64,000 nt of DNA, taken from the IMG/VR virus record IMGVR_UViG_3300036770_001537, one strand, 5' to 3'. The position numbers and the translations under genes were made by a program. Of this stretch, positions 26,946 to 53,755 are shown in pieces; position 1 is the first letter of the stretch; each line of letters begins with the position of its first letter. Below the pieces are notes generated by a model, which worked only from the letters and a program-made list of their open reading frames with translations, did no database searches and was not told where the DNA came from. The DNA comes from a virus.

Positions 26946-28415
26946 TTAGCCTTTCAATTGTATCTTATAGATTTTGAATGAGAATTTTTCTTCAGAATAG
27001 ATTTGAATACGTGAAGAAAAGTGTTTGAGAGTATAGTTTTCTTTTTTACGATAGCGTAGGTCATCTGCAATATCAAATAATGTTGCTTCTGTTTTGGTAT
27101 CAGATTTTCTGAGACTTCTACCAATTGATTGCAGATTTCTAATCCTTGATTTAGATGGGCTGGCAAATATTACATTATGTAGATTCTTTATATTAACTCC
27201 TGTAGAGAATGTTCCATATGAAGCAATGATTATAGCATCTGTTTCAGATTCTACAATCTTTCGTGTTTCTTCACGAACATTTACATTCACATCACCATGA
27301 ATAAAAAATACTTTTCTATCCTTGGCTCTACTATTTATCATGTCATATAATATAGACCCATGTTTATCTACATACTGATATAATATAAGAGTATTACCAT
27401 TCAATGATAATGATAGATTGGATATGAATTTATTTCTTTCTTCATTGAGAACAAGATATTCTATTTCTTGTTGATATGTATAATTTCTTGCCAACTTACA
27501 GCTTTCATCTGAATGTTTGAGAAGAAGGCATTTAATCTTGAAATCAGCAACGTGTTTCTGGTCCATAAGCTCTTTGGTAGTAATGACTTTATGGACCGAA
27601 CCAAATAGTCCTTCCAAAACAAGTTTGTGTGTTTTTGTACCATCAAGTGTGCCTGTAGTACCAATTCTATACTTGGCATTAGTGAGAGATGTCATGATGT
27701 CTGTTAGAGATTTTGCTTTGAACTGGTGTGCTTCGTCACCGATGACAAATCCAAACTTCTTGAAGTATTTGGGAGGGAGTTTGTGTAATGATTGCCAAGT
27801 AGAAATGGTTACTCTTTTGTTGGTATCTTTGTCCTGGCCTTGGTATATTCTATGGACATTATCCTCAACATTCCAACCATTTAGTTCAGAGTAATCTTTG
27901 AAGTCTGAATATAATTGCTCTACCAGAGATATGTTGGGAACAATAATAAGACCTCGTTCTTCAGTCTCAAGAAAATGTCTAAGCATCAAATAGATAATCA
28001 AAGACTTTCCTGATGCTGTTGGTGACAGTAACAATGCTCTTTTTGATCTGACAGCATGAACGAATGCTTCAACCTGATAATCTCTTGGCTGATATTTTGG
28101 ACCTATTGTCTCAATGAATTTATTTGCTTCGTTCAATGAAAATGATGTTGTGGAATCATCATATTTGTATGTATAATTACGACTTTTACAGAATGATATA
28201 ATATGTTGGATAAGTCCTCGGTATATCCTACGATTTCTAACATCCCACAATCTTATCTTTCCGTCCCAAAGACGAGCACGAAATTGTGGTGTGAATTGAG
28301 CCCCCGGAATAGTTAAAGTAAAATAATCTCTAAGCTCATAAGATATTGATTCGTCACACTGTATAGTGACAAAGACTTCGTTTTCATTTTTTATTATTAC
28401 ATCAGCCTCTGCCAT
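26946..28415 (-). CDS. uvsW: SF2 helicase UvsW
   Basis: WDGKIRL, PRDYQ, SPTASGKS, DEAH and QSIGR motifs. Confidence 0.96.
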   Translation of the reverse strand: MAEADVIIKNENEVFVTIQCDESISYELRDYFTLTIPGAQFTPQFRARLWDGKIRLWDVRNRRIYRGLIQHIISFCKSRNYTYKYDDSTTSFSLNEANKFIETIGPKYQPRDYQVEAFVHAVRSKRALLLSPTASGKSLIIYLMLRHFLETEERGLIIVPNISLVEQLYSDFKDYSELNGWNVEDNVHRIYQGQDKDTNKRVTISTWQSLHKLPPKYFKKFGFVIGDEAHQFKAKSLTDIMTSLTNAKYRIGTTGTLDGTKTHKLVLEGLFGSVHKVITTKELMDQKHVADFKIKCLLLKHSDESCKLARNYTYQQEIEYLVLNEERNKFISNLSLSLNGNTLILYQYVDKHGSILYDMINSRAKDRKVFFIHGDVNVNVREETRKIVESETDAIIIASYGTFSTGVNIKNLHNVIFASPSKSRIRNLQSIGRSLRKSDTKTEATLFDIADDLRYRKKENYTLKHFSSRIQIYSEEKFSFKIYKIQLKG

Positions 28416-28854
28416 TAAGATACATTTCCCATTTGATTATGTTGCTCAACTGAAAAGTTCTATTGTTTAATTCTTTCAATACTCTATCACAATAGTCTAC
28501 TATTTCTTGATGAATAACTTTTTTGATTAGAATTTTATTTAGGTCATCATCAGAATCAAGATACGATGGAATATCCTGCCTCATTATCTTCTTCATCTGT
28601 GGTTCCCAACCATATTCTTTCAAGTCTTCTGGATTATTCAAATCACCCATATAATACTCAATCTTCACTTTCTTGAGAGTATTATATTCATATGATAACT
28701 TCTTGACTATTAGGTTATGATGGGATAGTATGTTGAGGTATTTTGAATGAAGGTTGGGTATTCTACTCAATTCTCTTGTAGGATCGGTAGTATCAACTGG
28801 AGAATCATTTAGCCATTCTTCAGATAGGGTATCTATTGTGACTGGTGGTTTCAT
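28402..28854 (-). CDS. uvsY: Recombination mediator UvsY
   Basis: IPNLHSKY...YYMG...R.FQLSNIIKW; adjacent to uvsW. Confidence 0.9.
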   Translation of the reverse strand: MKPPVTIDTLSEEWLNDSPVDTTDPTRELSRIPNLHSKYLNILSHHNLIVKKLSYEYNTLKKVKIEYYMGDLNNPEDLKEYGWEPQMKKIMRQDIPSYLDSDDDLNKILIKKVIHQEIVDYCDRVLKELNNRTFQLSNIIKWEMYLNGRG

Positions 28855-28882: not shown

Positions 28883-28910
28883 ATTATAAAGGATTATTAT
28901 TATGTGTCAA
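28883..28910 (-). promoter_or_regulatory. Sigma70-like promoter for uvsY
   Basis: TTGACA-N16-TATAAT. Confidence 0.65.
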
Positions 28911-28911
28911 G

Positions 28912-29507
28912 TCATAATCTTTGAATTTTTTCTTTTTTCTTCGTGATATTTTTTCATTCTTAGTGATTGTAGTATTCTATTTTTTTCGTCAGACCAATAC
29001 TTAATCCTTTTATTTTTTTGTTTTTCTTTTACATCTTTGCGTTTGCTTGGATTTTTATCTGGATTATTTTTATAATATTCTGATCTTTTTTTACCTTCTA
29101 TCCTTTATCGCCGGGATACGCATTGGATTTTTATCTGGATTATTCCTATGATAATTTTTAAGACCTTGAGTGTTTTTACCTTTCATATTATTTTTTTGTT
29201 TTTCTGTCATTCTATATCCAGAAGTTCCATCACCACCGTCTGTTCTATTCCTCAATATCCCAGTTCCATTATCTTTACGACCATACCAACGAATTAATCT
29301 GCGTTCTAAAGCAAAAGCACCAAGTTCAGTTAGGTTTGATTCGCATATAATAATCCTTGATTTCTCTTTTGGGATGCTAATAGATTCCTTTTTCCCTTTT
29401 TTAAACAATCTTTTATTTCTACCTTTGCCGATATAATATGGTGTGCCATCTTCACGAAGATATGCATAGACATAGAACTCTAATGAATTTGATTTATAAA
29501 TAGACAT
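28912..29507 (-). mobile_element. GIY-YIG-like homing endonuclease, frameshifted near 29095
   Basis: [18 protein letters not shown]...[10 protein letters not shown]...[10 protein letters not shown]; the +1 frame continues with a second NNPDKNP repeat to TGA at 28912. Confidence 0.8.
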
Positions 29508-29509
29508 GG

Positions 29510-29564
29510 CTGGTGCTCCTGTTTAGCATTAGGGTAGGTAGATGTTGGTAGCATCGTGACCTAC
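29510..29564 (+). ncRNA. Candidate two-hairpin antisense RNA, copy A
   Basis: CUGGUGCU/AGCAUUAG and GUAGGU-A-GAUGU-loop-GCAUC-GUG-ACCUAC; TATAAATA at 29495. Confidence 0.6.
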
Positions 29565-29572
29565 ATTTCTAT

Positions 29573-30091
29573 TTATAGTCTTTGTATCTCAAAAAAGTCA
29601 TACCTAAATGTCACATCCATGACAATAGTATTATCAGCATTGTTTTTGGTATCAAACTGAATACCAGATAGAGCATATGGATGGCAGTTCTTAAATAAGA
29701 TACGTATATTCTGTATATTAGAGTTTGTATTGATCGTCAGGACTGCATCATGATATGGCGTCTTTTGTTCGTTATAGAATCTAATATACTGAGCGTAATC
29801 TTGTGGTTTGGTTAATGCTACCAACCAATCATGAGTTTCTTCCCATGTTCTAAGGTCTTCATCTACGATTGCTGTTATATTAAATTGATCATATACCAAT
29901 GTATCACCATGCCTAAACATATTGGCAAATGGTGAAGGCACCTGAACTGGTGATGTTGATATGCCTGGAATTTCTGCCGTTTGAGCAAAATACCGCAAGA
30001 AAGGCATTGTAGGAAACGAGAATGTAAATTTAGTTGCTTGTAGAAAACTGGTGTTTTCTGGAATCTTAGTTAATACTGATTGATTTGACAT
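29573..30091 (-). CDS. gp3: Tail completion/tube terminator
   Basis: NTSFLQATKFTF, AEIPGIS, VDEDLRTWEETHDWL, VTFRY. Confidence 0.85.
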   Translation of the reverse strand: MSNQSVLTKIPENTSFLQATKFTFSFPTMPFLRYFAQTAEIPGISTSPVQVPSPFANMFRHGDTLVYDQFNITAIVDEDLRTWEETHDWLVALTKPQDYAQYIRFYNEQKTPYHDAVLTINTNSNIQNIRILFKNCHPYALSGIQFDTKNNADNTIVMDVTFRYDFFEIQRL

Positions 30092-31197
30092 TACTTCCTC
30101 ATATTTGCTTCTTTGCCATTTGGATGCCAGTCCCATAAATCTCGATGGTGATATTTTATTGTGGCTAATACTAGAGGATCATTTTCTCTGTTATCTAGCA
30201 ATTTTTCTGCAATATGTGAATGGCTTGCTGCTGCTGCACGCACTTGTTCATCAGGATGTTTATGTAAAACTTCTGCATGTTCGGGATGATGATTGGCTAT
30301 TGCAGCAAGAACTGTTGGCGATCTTTCTGGTTTCTTGGTGAAAAACATACCTTTACCTGGATTCATATATTTGTCGGCAACAGATTCCCATTTGGCTGCT
30401 GCTGCTCTTACATCATCTGATGGATGGTCTATAAACTCATGTGCGAGTGTTTCTGAGCCTTCTACGATTCTTCTTTTAATTCTTTTAGATGCATCAGATG
30501 TACCAGGAGATTTTTTCATATATGTGCGAAGACTATCTTCATCTTCAAATAATTTACCATATTTTGATTTTTTAAGTGCAGGAATATCTTTCAGTTCTGG
30601 ATGTTTTTTGGTAAGATCAAGTAAACTAACTTCATTATCTCTTGAATCTCTTGCTATACCGCCTTCACCTTCATGATAGGCATATACTCCTGATGGTGTA
30701 TGGATAGTATACATATGATTTCTTTCACCCGGTTCGGCATTTGCATCCCTATAATGCTCGAAAGCATTTTCCTTACCTGTGGCAGCAACACACCAATTAG
30801 TCTTTCCTCCACCATAATTTTTGATACATGCTTCTTTGGTATCAACTCTATTTACTTTGATATTATCACTTTCATGGACGGGAACAACAGCATTTTCTTG
30901 TTGTTTCTTAAACTCTCTTTTTCTCAAGTGAAACGTCACATTTTTACTCAAACTATCATAATTTTCATATGAGTTAATGTCTCTGTCATCTTTGTGCATG
31001 ATGTCTTTTACAGAATGAAAGTCTTCTATTGTCTTTGCTACTTCTTTCATATCTGCATCTGGAGGAATATTTTTACCTAACCATTCACCATATGAAGATA
31101 GATGTTTCTTTGGAAGTTCAGATAAGTGAGGATATTTTTCTATAATATCCTTGGCTCTTGCTTCTGTCAGGTATGTGTATTCTTTGAATCTTAACAT
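30091..31197 (-). CDS. Hypothetical protein, candidate internal head protein with HEAT-like C-terminal repeats
   Basis: MLRFKEY..LTE start; YGGGKTNWCVA; HPSDDVRAAAA and HPDEQVRAAAA repeats. Confidence 0.6.
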   Translation of the reverse strand: MLRFKEYTYLTEARAKDIIEKYPHLSELPKKHLSSYGEWLGKNIPPDADMKEVAKTIEDFHSVKDIMHKDDRDINSYENYDSLSKNVTFHLRKREFKKQQENAVVPVHESDNIKVNRVDTKEACIKNYGGGKTNWCVAATGKENAFEHYRDANAEPGERNHMYTIHTPSGVYAYHEGEGGIARDSRDNEVSLLDLTKKHPELKDIPALKKSKYGKLFEDEDSLRTYMKKSPGTSDASKRIKRRIVEGSETLAHEFIDHPSDDVRAAAAKWESVADKYMNPGKGMFFTKKPERSPTVLAAIANHHPEHAEVLHKHPDEQVRAAAASHSHIAEKLLDNRENDPLVLATIKYHHRDLWDWHPNGKEANMRK

Positions 31198-44495: not shown

Positions 44496-44548
44496 CTTGA
44501 CAACCTTGACAAGCACTATATAATGGCTATGTCAGCCCTTCAATGAAT
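44496..44548 (+). repeat. 53-bp exact repeat, copy 2
   Basis: Identical to 26140-26192; abuts the gp17 stop codon. Confidence 0.95.
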
Positions 44549-47202
44549 TATAGTTTATATCTATTACTTAACACTTCCCAATCAGTGTTATCAAATACGA
44601 ATCTATTGCCTTTACTGACTATCCACTTCTCCTTTGCATCTGCTTCAGGATCATCAAACTCATCAACTCCATTATCAATGATGCCAAATGGAACTAAGTC
44701 TTGATCCATGATATTCATCTGTTCTTGTTGCAATGCACTTCTAATATCATTATTAATATTTTCCTTAAAGTATCTTTGACCTGTTAACCAACCAAAGTGT
44801 ACCAGTGTCATTGCCAAATCATCATTATTACCTTCTTCTGCTTTGAATGTTTGTTTATCAGCAGAGAATGTCATTAGTTCTTGAATAGTATCATAGTCAT
44901 TGATAATTAACTTATCAGATTCAATCAATGTCTTTATATTAGCACAACCAATCATCTTGGTTTGTTTATTGGTCTTGAGACCATATGCAATCTTCTTTTT
45001 GAATCCGGGAGTATGTTGTTGACCATGCTTACCTTTTGTTTCAATCTTGATTAGATTATCATATGCTAGTTCATGATGAAGAATATCGGATACCTGTAAT
45101 CCAATAGAATTTATTTCTACAAGAACAAATGCATCATTATACATTTTTGCTGCTTGAAGAATTACAGTTGGAAACAATAATGGTGTTATCTTATTATTCT
45201 TATATTTCGCAACTTGTCTGTATGGAAACTCTGTAACATCTATAATTGAAAATGTTGAATAGTCTTGGTTTAGACCTTCTGCAACATCAACGGTCATTGT
45301 GTATGTATGATTAGGAATAGGTTCTTTGTAAATATGTAAACAATCATTCATATCTTTACGAATAGGTTCATGCCATACAAGTGAACGAAGTTTGACTGGA
45401 TGTATTAGTGTGTTCGTTGAACCAATAAATTCACATTCAAATTCTTGACGGAATTGATCTGGTGATGTGTTACGAATGGTTGTTTCTTTCCACTTCTCAT
45501 CACGACCAGGAACCATAGACCAGTGAATTTCAATTGGTTTATAAAGACTTTTTTCTTCGACTGCTTCAGTCCACATTTTATAGAATAGATTCATACCATT
45601 TGGAGTAGACACTATGATAACTTTGGTTGTGTTACCAGATGAAATGGTTGGGTATGTTGACATAAAGAATGCTTCGGCAATGTTATTGGGAACGAATGCA
45701 AACTCGTCAAGGAATATCATATTGAAAGCACGACCACGTACAGAAGAACCTGAAGTTGAGTCTGCTAATGCTTTTGATCCATTAGCCAATTCTATTGAAC
45801 CTTTATTCCACTCAATAACACCCTGCTTAAGAAAGAACGGTAGATATTCAAAAGCAAGTTGAAGTCTACTCATAATTTCACGGGCAGTAGAAGATTTGTT
45901 GGCAAGTATAGCAACATTTACATTTTCATTGAATAGAATATAGTGTAGTATATACGCGACAGATGTTGTAGTATTGTGTGTAGGAATTAGATTTTTTCCA
46001 ATTAGAAATAAGTGACTCTCATTGTCAACTTGTATACATTTTGTTGGAATGGATTCTGTCTCTACAATTTTTTTGATATATAGTCTTTTGTTTTTTTCTT
46101 TATAATTATGAGTGGATTGTCTGGATAATTTACGTGGTAATCTAAAGCAGTTGAATAAGTCTGTGGCAAATCTAACTATAAAATATAAATTCCCTTTTAC
46201 AGACTTAGGTCTTTTACGAGTTTTTACACCCAAAGACCTAAGAATAAAGATGAAGTCGTCAACAATGTTTTCATCTTTTTGACAGAACTCCATTTTTCCA
46301 CTGTTTGTGATGTAACCATCAGTGTCCATTAATCCTTGAATAATTTCTATTCTTTGATGTCTTGCCGAAAACTTGTAAATGTCTGGTATATGTTTATTAC
46401 CTTTTAGGCCATTTTCACGCAGACTTTTATGTAAGCCTTCAATATTGAAGTTGCCAACATTTACATTTTCTTTATATGGCCTAAAATTTGATATATTTGG
46501 TATGTTTGATTTATAGTGCTGATAATCGTCAATATGGCAAGTAATTCTACCATCACTTTTGTTGCCATCACCTAACCAGACACCCAAAACATATGGATCG
46601 ATTGGCAACTGTTTTTCTGGAAAATCTAAACACTCATTTAACTTAACATATAGGCCACTACTATTTTCTTTTTTTTCTGATAGTGTTTTGATTAGGTCGG
46701 GCATACCTAAAGTTTTAGACTTGTGTTTCCAATCGGAAGAGCAAACTTCCCATAGATGATCTTCATCACAAGTTATTGTTGTTCCATCATCAAATTGAAC
46801 ATCGTAACACTTTAGATTTTTTATTGGCGTTACTAGTTTTACTGTTGTCAATTTTCCGTCTGGACCATATATCTTATCGCCAACAGAAAGATTTCCAAAC
46901 TTGACAAATCCAGTATCAGTAAGGATATCTTCATTAATATCAATACCTTTACCAACCTGACGAGGTAATTTACAAATAGAGAATCTGTTATTATGGAATG
47001 TGTTAAGCATATCCTGTTGAAAGTCCCACATATCAAAGTGCATGAGACCTTTATCCACGTTAACAATCATCATATAATTGACAGCAAAATATACGGGATC
47101 ATTAGCACATTTTATGAACTCATCAACTTCATGCTGAGTAAAATTGTGCTGATAATCGTGTCTGGGAAGATTTGGATTGTTTTGATACCCAAAATTAGCC
47201 AT
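44548..47202 (-). CDS. gp17: Terminase large subunit containing an intein
   Basis: PRQVGK|TTT Walker A split by the intein; IFLDEFAF, STPNG, DVAEG, DDLAM. Confidence 0.97.
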   Translation of the reverse strand: MANFGYQNNPNLPRHDYQHNFTQHEVDEFIKCANDPVYFAVNYMMIVNVDKGLMHFDMWDFQQDMLNTFHNNRFSICKLPRQVGKGIDINEDILTDTGFVKFGNLSVGDKIYGPDGKLTTVKLVTPIKNLKCYDVQFDDGTTITCDEDHLWEVCSSDWKHKSKTLGMPDLIKTLSEKKENSSGLYVKLNECLDFPEKQLPIDPYVLGVWLGDGNKSDGRITCHIDDYQHYKSNIPNISNFRPYKENVNVGNFNIEGLHKSLRENGLKGNKHIPDIYKFSARHQRIEIIQGLMDTDGYITNSGKMEFCQKDENIVDDFIFILRSLGVKTRKRPKSVKGNLYFIVRFATDLFNCFRLPRKLSRQSTHNYKEKNKRLYIKKIVETESIPTKCIQVDNESHLFLIGKNLIPTHNTTTSVAYILHYILFNENVNVAILANKSSTAREIMSRLQLAFEYLPFFLKQGVIEWNKGSIELANGSKALADSTSGSSVRGRAFNMIFLDEFAFVPNNIAEAFFMSTYPTISSGNTTKVIIVSTPNGMNLFYKMWTEAVEEKSLYKPIEIHWSMVPGRDEKWKETTIRNTSPDQFRQEFECEFIGSTNTLIHPVKLRSLVWHEPIRKDMNDCLHIYKEPIPNHTYTMTVDVAEGLNQDYSTFSIIDVTEFPYRQVAKYKNNKITPLLFPTVILQAAKMYNDAFVLVEINSIGLQVSDILHHELAYDNLIKIETKGKHGQQHTPGFKKKIAYGLKTNKQTKMIGCANIKTLIESDKLIINDYDTIQELMTFSADKQTFKAEEGNNDDLAMTLVHFGWLTGQRYFKENINNDIRSALQQEQMNIMDQDLVPFGIIDNGVDEFDDPEADAKEKWIVSKGNRFVFDNTDWEVLSNRYKL
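45973..46947 (-). mobile_element. 325-aa LAGLIDADG intein with class 3 (WCT) signature, Gly at position 1
   Basis: GIDINEDILT...CDEDHLW...LGVWLGDG...GLMDTDG...KCIQVD...IPTHN|T. Confidence 0.9.
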
Positions 47203-49511: not shown

Positions 49512-50020
49512 TAATCTTCCTTTTTCACATCAAAATTTCCAAATATTTTTAGATGAGGATGGTCCAATATCATTCTTTTCTCATCATTACTAATTTCTCT
49601 ATGCGGTGTTATTACCGTAGGTTTATGGGATTCATTACTTGGTGGCTTATGAATTGTGGCAGGAATAGCATCTTCAGGTATAGAATGCTCGGGTTTCTGG
49701 TCGTTAATCAATTTTCTTATTCCACCATGAGATATTTTTTCGCCCTTGAATACGACAACTCCGTTTGGATGAATCCATGCAGAATGTCTTGTTATTTCAC
49801 CTCTCTTAGATTTCAAATTTTCTATGTTTTCAGTATCTTCTTCATTACCTACCTCAACTTTTCCACTTTTTTTCACTTCAGTTGGTTTGGGATTATGAAC
49901 ATAACTTACTTCTGTCCCGTTTGGTCTTACTACGGCATGTGTACCAGAACCTGATTTAACTTTCATATATTTTGGTGGGCCTTTACCTGCTTCTTCTAAG
50001 TATTGCTTGAATGTTTTCAT
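49511..50020 (-). CDS. Hypothetical protein, candidate internal head protein
   Basis: [11 protein letters not shown]-terminus. Confidence 0.6.
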
Positions 50021-50622
50021 TTTTCTTCCTTGATTTTCTTCCAATATTCTCTCATTTTTTCCGAATGTTCGGGTCTTAATTTTCCTCTAAAATAATTTCC
50101 TTTTTTCGAATTTACTTCTTTAGAATATTTTTTGCCTAAGTTTGCCTCTGAGAGTTTTCTTCTTGTTTCTATACTGGGATTTCTTTTACTCTCTGATATT
50201 TTTTTCTTAGTATCTTCAGAATATTTTTTGCCTTTGTTCCATGCTATTTGAAGACCTTTCTTTCCCTTGTTCCAAGGAATCTGTCCTTTGTGCCCATCGC
50301 TTATTTTTTTCAACTGATTTTCATTAAATTTAAATCCAGATATCCCGTCGCCACCATCAGTTCTATTTCTTAAAATACCTGTTCCATTATCTTTACGCCC
50401 ATACCATCGTATCAACCTTCTCTCTAGTGCTAATGCTCCTATTTCAGTTAAATTTTCCTCAACGATAATAATGTGATTTTTATTTTTCGGTCTTCTTATT
50501 TTTTGAGAATTATGACTAGACCATGCTCGCTTGCCTTTACCTTTACCTATATAATATGGTGTATAGTCTTCTCTAATATAAGCATATACATAATATTCTA
50601 ATGTTGATTGATAAATAATCAT
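50017..50622 (-). mobile_element. GIY-YIG-like homing endonuclease with NUMOD3 repeats
   Basis: [18 protein letters not shown]...[10 protein letters not shown]...DGGDG; PWNKG repeats; GGAGG SD before ATG 50622. Confidence 0.88.
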
Positions 50623-50623
50623 G

Positions 50624-50679
50624 CTGATACCTCCAGTATAGGTGTTAGAATGGTCGGAGACGGCAATCTCGCGGGCCAT
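50624..50679 (+). ncRNA. Candidate two-hairpin antisense RNA, copy B
   Basis: CUGAUACCU/AGGUGUUAG and AUGGUC-G-GAGA-CGGCAA-UCUC-GCG-GGCCAU; GATAAATA at 50610. Confidence 0.6.
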
Positions 50680-50682
50680 ATT

Positions 50683-51099
50683 TTATTTATCTTCTTTCGA
50701 CTTTATCATTTTCAATAAGTCGGCAGTAGTTCCGCAGAAGACTGCCTTTTCTACTGTAATATCACCTTGAGGTGTCTTATTACTCACTTCTTTTAATTCT
50801 TTGGTAGTCTTTTGTAGAGCATATAAATCTTTGGTTGTTTCTGAAATTGTTTTCATCATTGTCGCAAATACTTCGTATGCCCGAGGACTTTCACTCTGTC
50901 TTGCCAACTCCTTCATATCTTCCATTGCCAGATTACCTTGTTGAATTAAGTTTCTAAAAGTTTGTCTGGCTAAGTTGTAATCTGCTTCAGCATCATTTGT
51001 CTGTGTAGGTTCAAGTATTTCCTGTCGCACAGGTTCAAGTATTTCCTGCTTTGGTGCTACTGGTTCAATACCCAAGGCATCTGTTAATTTTTTATTCAT
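50683..51099 (-). CDS. gp16: Terminase small subunit
   Basis: DYNLAR, SESPRAYEV, FCGTTADL. Confidence 0.93.
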   Translation of the reverse strand: MNKKLTDALGIEPVAPKQEILEPVRQEILEPTQTNDAEADYNLARQTFRNLIQQGNLAMEDMKELARQSESPRAYEVFATMMKTISETTKDLYALQKTTKELKEVSNKTPQGDITVEKAVFCGTTADLLKMIKSKEDK

Positions 51100-52112
51100 T
51101 ATTCATCACTCGCTATATTTGGATATTCTTCAATTGTTGTAGAGTATCCATAATCATCTTCTGGTTCAGCATCAATTGGATCGGGCTCTACAGTAATCTT
51201 GACAAGTTTTAGTGGTGTAGCGTCAAATGATGCTATCACATAATTAGCATTCGTAGTTACTGCACGAATTGTATTATTCACATTGAAATTTCCTTGAGCA
51301 CCACCAACAACAAGTCTATAGTTAGTATTGCTCCATTCATTCACAAAGCCGTATGCCGTTGCAGTTTCATATGTATTACCTTGATAGATTATATCACCTG
51401 TCTTAAACATACCGTTGCCAGTATTAGCAAGGTTCATTCTAATCACATTACCACGAACAAGTGATGGGTCATTAAAGATATTGGCAATTGCTTTGCGAAT
51501 AATCTTTGGTGTAGAAATTGGTCCAAAGAAATATCCCTTGAGTGTAAAAGTCAGCGTAAAATATACATATCTTACAGAATCATAATTACCCTCATACTGA
51601 ATGTTCTGTGTCACATTATTCAATATGATTGGTATATCTTTGAGAAAACCAAGTTCGGCAACTGGTGTAATAGTAACTGTATAATCTGGATTGAAGTATG
51701 GTAATATCTGCTCCATGATATGATTACCATCATCAATTGTCTTGGCATAGATATTCAGTTCAAAGTTGAAATCATATGGAACGCCCATATAACCTGATGA
51801 TACTCTTGATGCATTATCACCTTTAGCAACTCTTAGTAGAGAGTTCTGTTTCCTAGAAGCATCATATGAGAAATTAGTCAGTTCAAATGACATTCTTGGT
51901 AGTATCAATCCAACATCTTTTAAGAGGTCTGGATCAGTTTCAATTCTGGTTACAAACTTATCTTTGGGACCATATATCAAAGGAACTTTAATTCTCTTGG
52001 TTTCTACATCAGAAGCGTCGTATCTAACAAGGGTAATGTTATCAAACATATTACCCATGATGATTACATATTTTCTAAGTAGTTTGTAATAAAAATGTGC
52101 GTTACTTAACGT
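51099..52112 (-). CDS. gp15: Tail sheath stabilizer/terminator; apparent ACG start
   Basis: (ACG)LSNAHFYYKLLRKYVIIMGNMF, VPLIYGPKDKF, LPRMSFE, EQILPYFNP. Confidence 0.9.
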   Translation of the reverse strand, partial: TLSNAHFYYKLLRKYVIIMGNMFDNITLVRYDASDVETKRIKVPLIYGPKDKFVTRIETDPDLLKDVGLILPRMSFELTNFSYDASRKQNSLLRVAKGDNASRVSSGYMGVPYDFNFELNIYAKTIDDGNHIMEQILPYFNPDYTVTITPVAELGFLKDIPIILNNVTQNIQYEGNYDSVRYVYFTLTFTLKGYFFGPISTPKIIRKAIANIFNDPSLVRGNVIRMNLANTGNGMFKTGDIIYQGNTYETATAYGFVNEWSNTNYRLVVGGAQGNFNVNNTIRAVTTNANYVIASFDATPLKLVKITVEPDPIDAEPEDDYGYSTTIEEYPNIASDE

Positions 52113-53033: not shown

Positions 53034-53720
53034 TTATCCTTTTACTTTTCCTTTTGTCCAATCCTTACCAGGACAATCTTTACTTCTTTTATTTATCTTT
53101 CCATTGTTCCACCAGAAAGTTCCTCTCATCCACTCAGCATTATTTGGTGGTTTGCCTTTCATTGTAGCACTTGTTTTGGCGTTCATTTTCTTTTTGAGTT
53201 CAGGGTCGTGCTTCTTTCCATAAAAACCATTTTTATCACCAGTAAGTTTTTTACCATAGAAATAATTGTTTTTTCCAGAAATCAAATCACTTGCCTTATT
53301 TCTTCGTTCATCGGACCAAGATTCTCGTATTTTTTGTTTGGTTTCCTCTGTTCTTTTCTTGCCTGTGTTAGATTTGACCCTTTTAGCCTTTTCTTCTTCA
53401 GGTTGTTTTCTACCTTTATTTGCCGCCCAAGCGAGTTTTAGTGAAGTATTGGTTGTATATAAATTATAGTATTTTTTACCTAATTCTTCTTCTGATATCA
53501 AAGACAACCATTTATGTTCTTCTGATAGTAGATTATGTTTTTCTATATTTTTGCTCAAGATTCTTCTTTTGAAGTCATTAGGTCTTCTACGATAAGCATC
53601 ACGCATTCTATTAGAAGAACAAATATAACCGTCATTTAATGTTCCCCAATGGCAACCAATATAGTACATCTTACGCTTCTTATCAAACCAGATATAAATA
53701 AAACCTTCTTTTTCCATCAT
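53034..53720 (-). mobile_element. Seg-like GIY-YIG homing endonuclease
   Basis: GFIYIW...YYIGCHWG...DGYICSS; NUMOD3 repeats; WWNNG. Confidence 0.88.
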
Positions 53721-53755
53721 AACCTCCTATGACAATGGTTATGATTATATTTATA
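53716..53755 (-). promoter_or_regulatory. Late promoter with RBS-sequestering hairpin
   Basis: TATAAATA (53748-55), then a 9-bp ATCATAACC/GGTTATGAT stem over the SD and ATG. Confidence 0.75.

Follow-up and report, generated by a model that had tools for sequence, protein, structure and literature searches.

A Recurrent Two-Hairpin Cassette at the Head of Homing Endonuclease Genes in T4-Like Phages, with a Putative Antisense RNA

Positions 50610-50691 of the window (the whole stretch of viral DNA that was analysed, 64,000 nucleotides) can be folded into two hairpins directly in front of a homing endonuclease gene, which raises the question of what this element is, on which strand its fold is maintained and what it does for the gene. 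The element is one copy of a widespread cassette heading homing endonuclease genes in T4-like phages.

Genomic Setting and Anatomy of the Element

Gene identities in the window were obtained from PHROG and Pfam matches, by which the source is taken to be a distant T4-like phage and the element at 50610-50691 to lie among T4-like structural and packaging genes. The PHROG/Pfam assignments used below, together with one stop codon, were:

28402-28854, minus strand, UvsY
29573-30136, minus strand, tail tube
44548-47202, minus strand, large terminase
50683-51099, minus strand, small terminase subunit (gp16-like)
50683-50685, minus strand, stop codon TAA of the small terminase, inside the forward box of the cassette
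51099-52058, minus strand, tail sheath stabiliser gp15

The closest cultured relatives of the small terminase are those of cyanomyoviruses, at 40% identity only, and its product was matched in one Logan run and in a 575-bp ENA contig. The cassette (copy B) fills the gap between the stop codon of this gene and the gene for a GIY-YIG/NUMOD3 endonuclease. All the motifs that the original prediction had listed for 50610-50691 were found in their places, and the locus was resolved into the following features:

50017-50622, minus strand, free-standing GIY-YIG homing endonuclease of 201 aa with a NUMOD3 motif
50610-50617, plus strand, inverted late-promoter-type box GATAAATA, in codons 2-4 (I-I-Y) and pointing back through the cassette
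50620-50622, minus strand, endonuclease start codon ATG, at whose Met the alignment with the paralogue begins
50624-50648, plus strand, hairpin 1, with CTGATACCT (50624-32), loop CCAGTAT (50633-39) and AGGTGTTAG (50640-48)
50630-50634, minus strand, Shine-Dalgarno sequence GGAGG, 7 nt before the ATG
50649, plus strand, linker A between hairpins 1 and 2
50650-50679, plus strand, hairpin 2, with ATGGTC (50650-55), G, GAGA, loop CGGCAA, TCTC, GCG and GGCCAT (50674-79)
50684-50691, minus strand, forward late-promoter-type box GATAAATA, facing the endonuclease gene and overlapping the TAA at 50683-50685

Read on the gene strand, the order is a (N)ATAAATA box, about 5 nt, a bulged hairpin, UCUAA, a ribosome-binding-site hairpin, CAGC, ATG and an inverted TAAATA box; this strand supplies a late-promoter-type box, leader, ribosome-binding site, start codon and the first few codons. 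The inverted box at 50610-50617 also forms a 9-bp repeat with 50683-50691, of which it is the 3' arm. On the plus strand hairpin 1 has nine contiguous pairs (three of them G-U) and a 7-nt loop, with an anti-Shine-Dalgarno CCTCC at the stem/loop junction, and the gene strand forms four pairs only. Hairpin 2 has an outer stem of 6 bp and an inner stem of 4 bp closed by a 6-nt loop, and between the two stems lies a single covarying G-C/A-U pair with bulges on its flanks (on the gene strand, CGC opposite C); downstream of the hairpin on the plus strand an A is followed by a U-rich tract. Inspection by eye eliminated a K-turn reading of the bulged helix, as the pairs after the bulge are Watson-Crick and covarying.

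In the ORF list the endonuclease is a 220-aa frame that begins at 50679 and runs through both hairpins. The true start is the ATG at 50622, giving 201 aa and not 220 aa, and the 82-base element is therefore the leader plus the first four codons. The 220-aa version, beginning inside hairpin 2, is present among public gene calls in the same Logan run as the small-terminase product, and among the encoding contigs searched there was no record of the 201-aa product. Since the public call uses the frame that starts in hairpin 2, the cassette causes systematic ORF over-extension in automatic annotation.

Another copy of the cassette (copy A) lies elsewhere in the window:

29487-29578, minus strand, copy A of the cassette (its motifs at 29495-29577), lying between the tail-tube gene and a paralogous endonuclease
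29570-29577, minus strand, exact TATAAATA box of copy A
29495-29502, plus strand, exact TATAAATA box of copy A
29091-29507, minus strand, paralogous endonuclease behind copy A, 138-aa frame

In both copies the cassette overlaps the stop codon of the upstream gene. The nuclease domains behind them are 68% identical over 104 residues and their C-terminal tails are unrelated, in line with the close paralogy and differing tails that had been predicted. With a covariance model built from the family (R1, see below), copy B reached 75.8 bits and copy A 80.8 bits (E about 1e-13). No third match was obtained in the 64-kb window, whose three remaining GIY-YIG-like genes, starting at 53720, 36129 and 15341, lack the two-hairpin cassette.

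Several observations on neighbouring genes were made in passing. The gene behind copy A is split: its 138-aa frame has its stop codon at 29091-29093, where a seven-A run (29086-29092) begins, and the shifted frame stays open for 62 more residues, to 28906, and repeats the NNPDKNP motif. The break near 29086-29100 could be a frameshift mutation, a homopolymer sequencing error or a site of slippage; the cassette in front of the split gene (28906-29507) is intact (80.8 bits). In T4, gene 16 is followed directly by gene 17. In the window, the segment 47220-50044 between the endonuclease and the large terminase contains three ORFs of 177, 75 and 684 aa, the last with weak tail-fibre/baseplate-connector-like matches and the first with no match in PHROG. 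The large terminase ORF (44548-47202) codes for 884 aa, T4 gp17 being much shorter, and its PHROG matches fall into two pieces (about 20-683 and 411-800), which suggests an insertion, e.g., an intein or an extra domain.

Distribution and Covariation of the Cassette

IMG/VR contigs carrying relatives of the window nuclease showed the same upstream layout, and 35 distinct copies of the cassette were aligned (alignment A1) as the basis of covariance model R1. By this model the cassette is found in more than 60 places across uncultured phage contigs and in the cultured Rhizobium phage RHph_I1_18. Fifty copies adjoin relatives of the GIY-YIG gene (first contig set plus the window, which contributes the two known copies only), 12 were found in a set of five whole contigs (88-354 kb), one of which, 88 kb long, has six, and 13 adjoin HNH_3 genes (Pfam E 5e-13). 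The single copy in RHph_I1_18, at about 80,288-80,380 of MN988519.1, is intact; the gene behind it is endonuclease-like, unannotated and divergent from its upstream neighbour. Across the family the layout has (N)ATAAATA or CTAAATA as its box, CGC/C or CAC/U as the interruption, and GGAG in the second hairpin. One contig (L005) has the same order of small terminase, cassette and endonuclease as the window; the terminases are 44% identical and the N-terminal nuclease regions 73%, as expected for a homing element re-using its site.

Megablast of the region against cultured phages gave no match, and blastn with a consensus-like cassette query gave one weak match, to RHph_I1_18, which R1 then confirmed; neither search found sequence similarity to the cassette in cultured T-even phages, and in cyanophage S-SRM01 the cassette is absent at the related gene. 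No Rfam 15 family, HEARO included, reached its gathering score within the window, and at E ≤ 10 there were only chance snoRNA and sRNA matches. Literature searches led to reviews on how T4 endonucleases are regulated, to CfrI and to a catalogue of candidate phage RNAs, and to no description of the cassette, absence from the literature as a whole not being proven thereby. The cassette is apparently a new, undescribed RNA family doing a known kind of job.

The genes behind the cassette are mostly of the GIY-YIG type, and also include HNH_3 genes and an ORF with a NUMOD3 motif only; it is thus a module and not part of one nuclease lineage. It always lies directly at the 5' end of the endonuclease gene, so that the prediction that element and nuclease travel together holds. 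The swap of RNAs between the two nucleases that had been proposed implied in addition that each RNA is the cognate partner or guide of its nuclease, in the manner of HEARO or omega RNA. The constant adjacency is what such a relation would produce, and we nevertheless consider it extremely unlikely: the same cassette heads GIY-YIG, HNH_3 and nuclease-less ORFs, it contains no variable guide-like segment, it matches no Rfam family, and the proteins bear DNA-binding modules of their own, e.g., NUMOD3.

Covariation was very strong in hairpin 2. In A1 all 11 of its pairs were changed on both sides, with 97% of the cells paired; none of 500 shuffles reached the observed score, and slid registers did not come close. 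Even the interruption holds a real pair, the middle base of CGC/CAC covarying with the single base opposite (G-C in 30, A-U in 10 of the 47 sequences considered below). A chance origin of the cassette is ruled out by this result together with the model E value of about 1e-13, and it is confirmed that the two-hairpin cassette is real and covarying, with the window element as its second copy. The compensatory stem changes relative to copy A are present as originally quoted, and are ordinary compensatory drift within a large family.

A further explanation dispenses with RNA altogether and takes the inverted boxes and palindromic stems as a DNA or single-stranded DNA element for recombination, cassette exchange or protein recognition. 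It would suit the position of the cassette at the exact 5' boundary of a mobile gene, overlapping the upstream stop codon in both window copies, and its occurrence with nuclease domains that are unrelated to one another, a sign of recombination inside or beside it; G-T pairs in single-stranded DNA would equally favour the plus strand. Its probability is low in our estimate, as the stems vary freely and still keep their pairing, which is not how a protein-bound duplex palindrome evolves, and as the Shine-Dalgarno sequence, start codon and promoter boxes are integral to the cassette. Moreover, we know of no process in T4-type phages that exposes only the plus strand of the cassette.

Strand of the Conserved Fold

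The pattern of variation shows that the two-hairpin fold is under selection on the strand opposite the gene. Copy B folds with -25.2 kcal/mol (z -3.0) on the plus strand and -15.1 kcal/mol (z -0.6) on the minus strand, and copy A with -26.6 kcal/mol (z about -3) on the plus strand and -17.7 kcal/mol on the gene strand. Over the family the minimum free energy was lower for the antisense strand in 37 of 39 sequences (means -17.9 versus -14.0 kcal/mol for the sense strand), both exceptions, copy A and L005, having been entered with incomplete cores. RNAalifold applied to 47 sequences recovered both hairpins on the antisense strand (17 pairs, -17.2 kcal/mol) and hairpin 2 only on the sense strand (11 pairs, -13.9 kcal/mol).

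A census of pairs in the model-based alignment counted 599 Watson-Crick cells, 72 wobbles valid on the antisense strand only (35 once an invariant column is excluded), 13 valid on the sense strand only and 19 other cells, the cassette sequences being related, so that the wobble counts overstate the number of independent events. The G-U cells of the antisense hairpins are A-C mismatches on the sense strand; in hairpin 2 such cases occur in at least six different stem backgrounds, and in copy B the plus strand alone allows the U-G pair 50654/50675. On the antisense strand of the 47 sequences the outer half of hairpin 1 reads C-G in 47, U-A in 47, G-U in 47, A-U in 32 with G-U in 10, and U-G in 18 with U-A in 13 and C-G in 7, and the middle pair of hairpin 2 reads G-C in 30, A-U in 10 and G-U in 7. 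The HNH-linked copies have CGCCAG for CAUCAG, by which an antisense A-U pair becomes G-U and a U-G pair becomes C-G with all pairs kept; on the sense strand the same change replaces one mismatch by another.

Stability, pair census, RNAalifold and the HNH-linked copies thus bear out the fold antisense to the gene that had been proposed. Since the conserved fold fits the strand opposite the gene, the cassette probably makes a small antisense RNA restraining the nuclease.

Facing Late-Promoter-Type Boxes and Control of the Nuclease

The 8-mers that flank the hairpins, overlooked in the original prediction, are by their sequence T4-type late-promoter boxes, the left one falling in codons 2-4; late promoters read TATAAATA in T4 and NATAAATA in cyanomyoviruses (PMC2984593). 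The forward box has the form of T4-type late promoters and hardly varies: 46 of the 47 aligned cassettes have its TAAATA, written (N)ATAAATA or CTAAATA, and in 31 of the 46 it is separated from hairpin 2 by 5 nt. Late transcription in T4 begins some 6 nt past the box; with the 5-nt spacer, a transcript would therefore be expected to start with the first base of hairpin 2. Exact TATAAATA occurs 15 times in the window, which is an enrichment over the 8.6 expected. Eleven of the 15 are on the coding strand, seven of these 27-92 nt before an ORF start, and two of the four on the plus strand lie within the first 30 nt of endonuclease ORFs. For the bare 8-mer GATAAATA the window showed no enrichment, with 5 occurrences against 7.2 expected.

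Forty of the 47 cassettes have the inverted TAAATA and seven lack it. It equals NATAAATA in 29 of the 40, departs from the late-promoter consensus by a T or G in place of A or C in 11, and lies 5-8 nt from the CAG of hairpin 1 in 35. It falls in all three reading frames (M-S-I-Y, M-Y-L, M-I-F and others), with the ATG shifting inside the spacer, and it also precedes HNH domains. A spacing that is fixed despite a moving ATG and frame, also before HNH domains, therefore marks it as a nucleotide-level element. It could act as promoter for the antisense RNA, or it could pair with the forward box as the 3' arm of a helix on the sense strand.

In the window copies the boxes belong to closing repeats of 9 and 10 bp, which close the predicted fold on both strands. 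Family-wide, CTAAATA forward boxes mostly have ATAAATA as inverted partner, and complementarity beyond the shared 6-mer was not significant (permutation total 1.44 versus 1.19, p 0.09), with none in 16 of 39 cassettes; the closing repeat of the window copies is thus an exception, and the comparison favours two facing boxes rather than a conserved closing helix.

On this basis, with our confidence evenly divided for and against, we propose that facing late promoters give rise to the endonuclease mRNA and to a predicted cis-antisense RNA of 60-75 nt over its ribosome site. The two promoters would face each other at a distance of about 65 bp. From the forward one, the endonuclease mRNA would start exactly at hairpin 2, which would form a 5'-terminal stem-loop; the inverted box in codons 2-4 would drive the antisense RNA, whose first base would lie about 6 nt further on, where hairpin 1 has its base. 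The antisense RNA would pass through hairpin 1, with the anti-Shine-Dalgarno at its loop, and hairpin 2, and its U-rich end would be the complement of the forward box. The RNA would be perfectly complementary to the first approximately 60 nt of the endonuclease mRNA, including the Shine-Dalgarno sequence and AUG, which would therefore be masked, or cleavage of the duplex would be triggered. The outcome would be low synthesis of a potentially toxic nuclease late in infection.

Several points weaken the proposal. Where the forward box is CTAAATA, the inverted box is mostly ATAAATA. The putative antisense promoter is weakened by the inverted boxes that are missing (7 of 47) or off-consensus (11 of 40), and the terminator for the 3' end of the putative RNA is mediocre: the tail after hairpin 2 is moderately U-rich (mean 6.2 U in 12 nt, the first base always A), reading AUUUUAUUUAU and AUUUCUAUUUAU in the window copies, and a consensus terminator scan called none at either of them. 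A small peptide encoded on the antisense RNA was also considered and rejected; an AUG arises from the palindromic CATG, but it has no Shine-Dalgarno sequence and opens 6 codons only.

A precedent in T4 counts against the antisense reading and for a mechanism on the sense strand. The genes of I-TevI, I-TevII, I-TevIII, segB and Aeh1 mobE combine a late promoter with hairpins that sequester the ribosome-binding site (PMC2988022). A leader of this type would need no antisense RNA: on transcripts reading through from the upstream late gene, the box would pair with the TATTTA of codons 2-4 and close a three-way junction hiding the Shine-Dalgarno sequence and AUG, and transcripts from the gene's own late promoter, which do not include the 5' arm, would be translated, with hairpin 2 as 5'-terminal stabiliser. 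The closing repeats of 9 and 10 bp in the window copies suit this scheme, as do the G/C difference at their outer end, which is compensatory from copy A to copy B, the 5-nt spacer, by which a transcript would be expected to start with the first base of hairpin 2, and an inner extension of the repeat slightly above shuffles (0.87 versus 0.54). Against it, the repeat is in the family usually just the six A/U pairs of the boxes, and the Shine-Dalgarno hairpin has 3-5 bp only and was the one that RNAalifold missed. Furthermore, the mismatches tolerated in both stems are A-C and not G-U on the sense strand, and the divergent gene of RHph_I1_18 has no read-through to block and still has an intact cassette. 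The sense-strand scheme is the main rival of the antisense reading, and as the sole explanation we consider it rather unlikely; the two are not mutually exclusive.

Comparison with the T-even leaders shows likeness in the late-promoter box directly upstream of the endonuclease ORF, in RNA structure around the ribosome site and, in the window copies, in a promoter sequence that is one arm of a helix. Those leaders are gene-specific and very stable sense hairpins, whereas the cassette is one homologous unit across genes and phages, with a weak Shine-Dalgarno hairpin on the sense strand and a fold selected on the opposite one.

For the antisense RNA that we prefer, parallels exist outside T4. RNA-OUT of IS10/Tn10 and sar of phage P22 are folded cis-antisense RNAs of about 70 nt, which are transcribed from a facing promoter, cover the ribosome-binding site and start codon and limit translation. 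The putative cassette RNA would likewise be short (about the 70 nt class), stably folded and antisense to the Shine-Dalgarno sequence and AUG. It has no sequence or model similarity to them, and it differs in its boxes of T4 late type (RNA-OUT and sar have sigma-70 promoters), in having two hairpins with a conserved bulged helix, and in a homing endonuclease gene as the target.

In cyanophage S-PM2, CfrI is about 225 nt long and links psbA to the endonuclease gene (PMC2984593, citing Millard et al. 2010). The resemblance consists in an antisense RNA, putative in the present case, overlapping a homing endonuclease gene in a T4-like phage. As short conserved modules of a promoter-type box and stem-loops that recur at gene boundaries and may mediate modular shuffling, the cassettes also resemble the PeSLs, reportedly described by Arbiol et al. 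in 2010 as cassettes of a terminator-like stem-loop and an early promoter in T4-type phages. Unlike these, the cassette has facing boxes of late type and includes an ORF start, and PeSLs are not known to be tied to endonuclease genes. We know of no cassette shared with CfrI.

Homing endonucleases are abundant selfish genes of large phages. To our knowledge, the control that keeps them harmless is known only for a small number of T-even genes, every one of which has a sense-strand hairpin of its own. One recombining, covarying cassette serving both GIY-YIG and HNH genes would solve the problem in a general way. A single mobile brake shared by free-standing endonuclease genes of several catalytic families in many T4-like phages is conceivable, consisting of a small RNA gene read from a gp55-type late promoter within the first codons of the nuclease ORF, its product pairing with the mRNA leader; we advance it tentatively, at slightly less than an even chance. 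If real, and with the same reserve, which falls a little on the doubting side, such a module would be the first conserved antisense-RNA family for homing endonucleases and the first class of small RNAs from T4 late promoters. If the antisense RNA is true, control by facing-promoter antisense RNAs as in IS10 and P22 extends to T4-type late transcription, in the form of a compact and portable limiter of expression. As a ready-made RNA family for annotation, the cassette corrects start-codon calls (201 versus 220 aa) and marks the boundaries of endonuclease genes in metagenomic phages.

Two further arrangements of the boxes were observed. The GIY-YIG gene at 53034-53720 (minus strand), which has no hairpins, has the same facing pair of exact TATAAATA boxes:

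53748-53755, minus strand, forward TATAAATA, 28 nt before the ATG
53693-53700, plus strand, inverted TATAAATA, in the G-F-I-Y-I codons

The other is a cassette of the family (L092, 10366-10454 of contig G005). The ORF behind it (L092:1569-2090) has no recognisable nuclease domain; it carries NUMOD3 repeats and a C-terminal zinc-finger-like tail, CxxC...MKRYHFxNCK. In this cassette the forward box has been lost (TTAACTATTA) and the inverted box is an exact TATAAATA.
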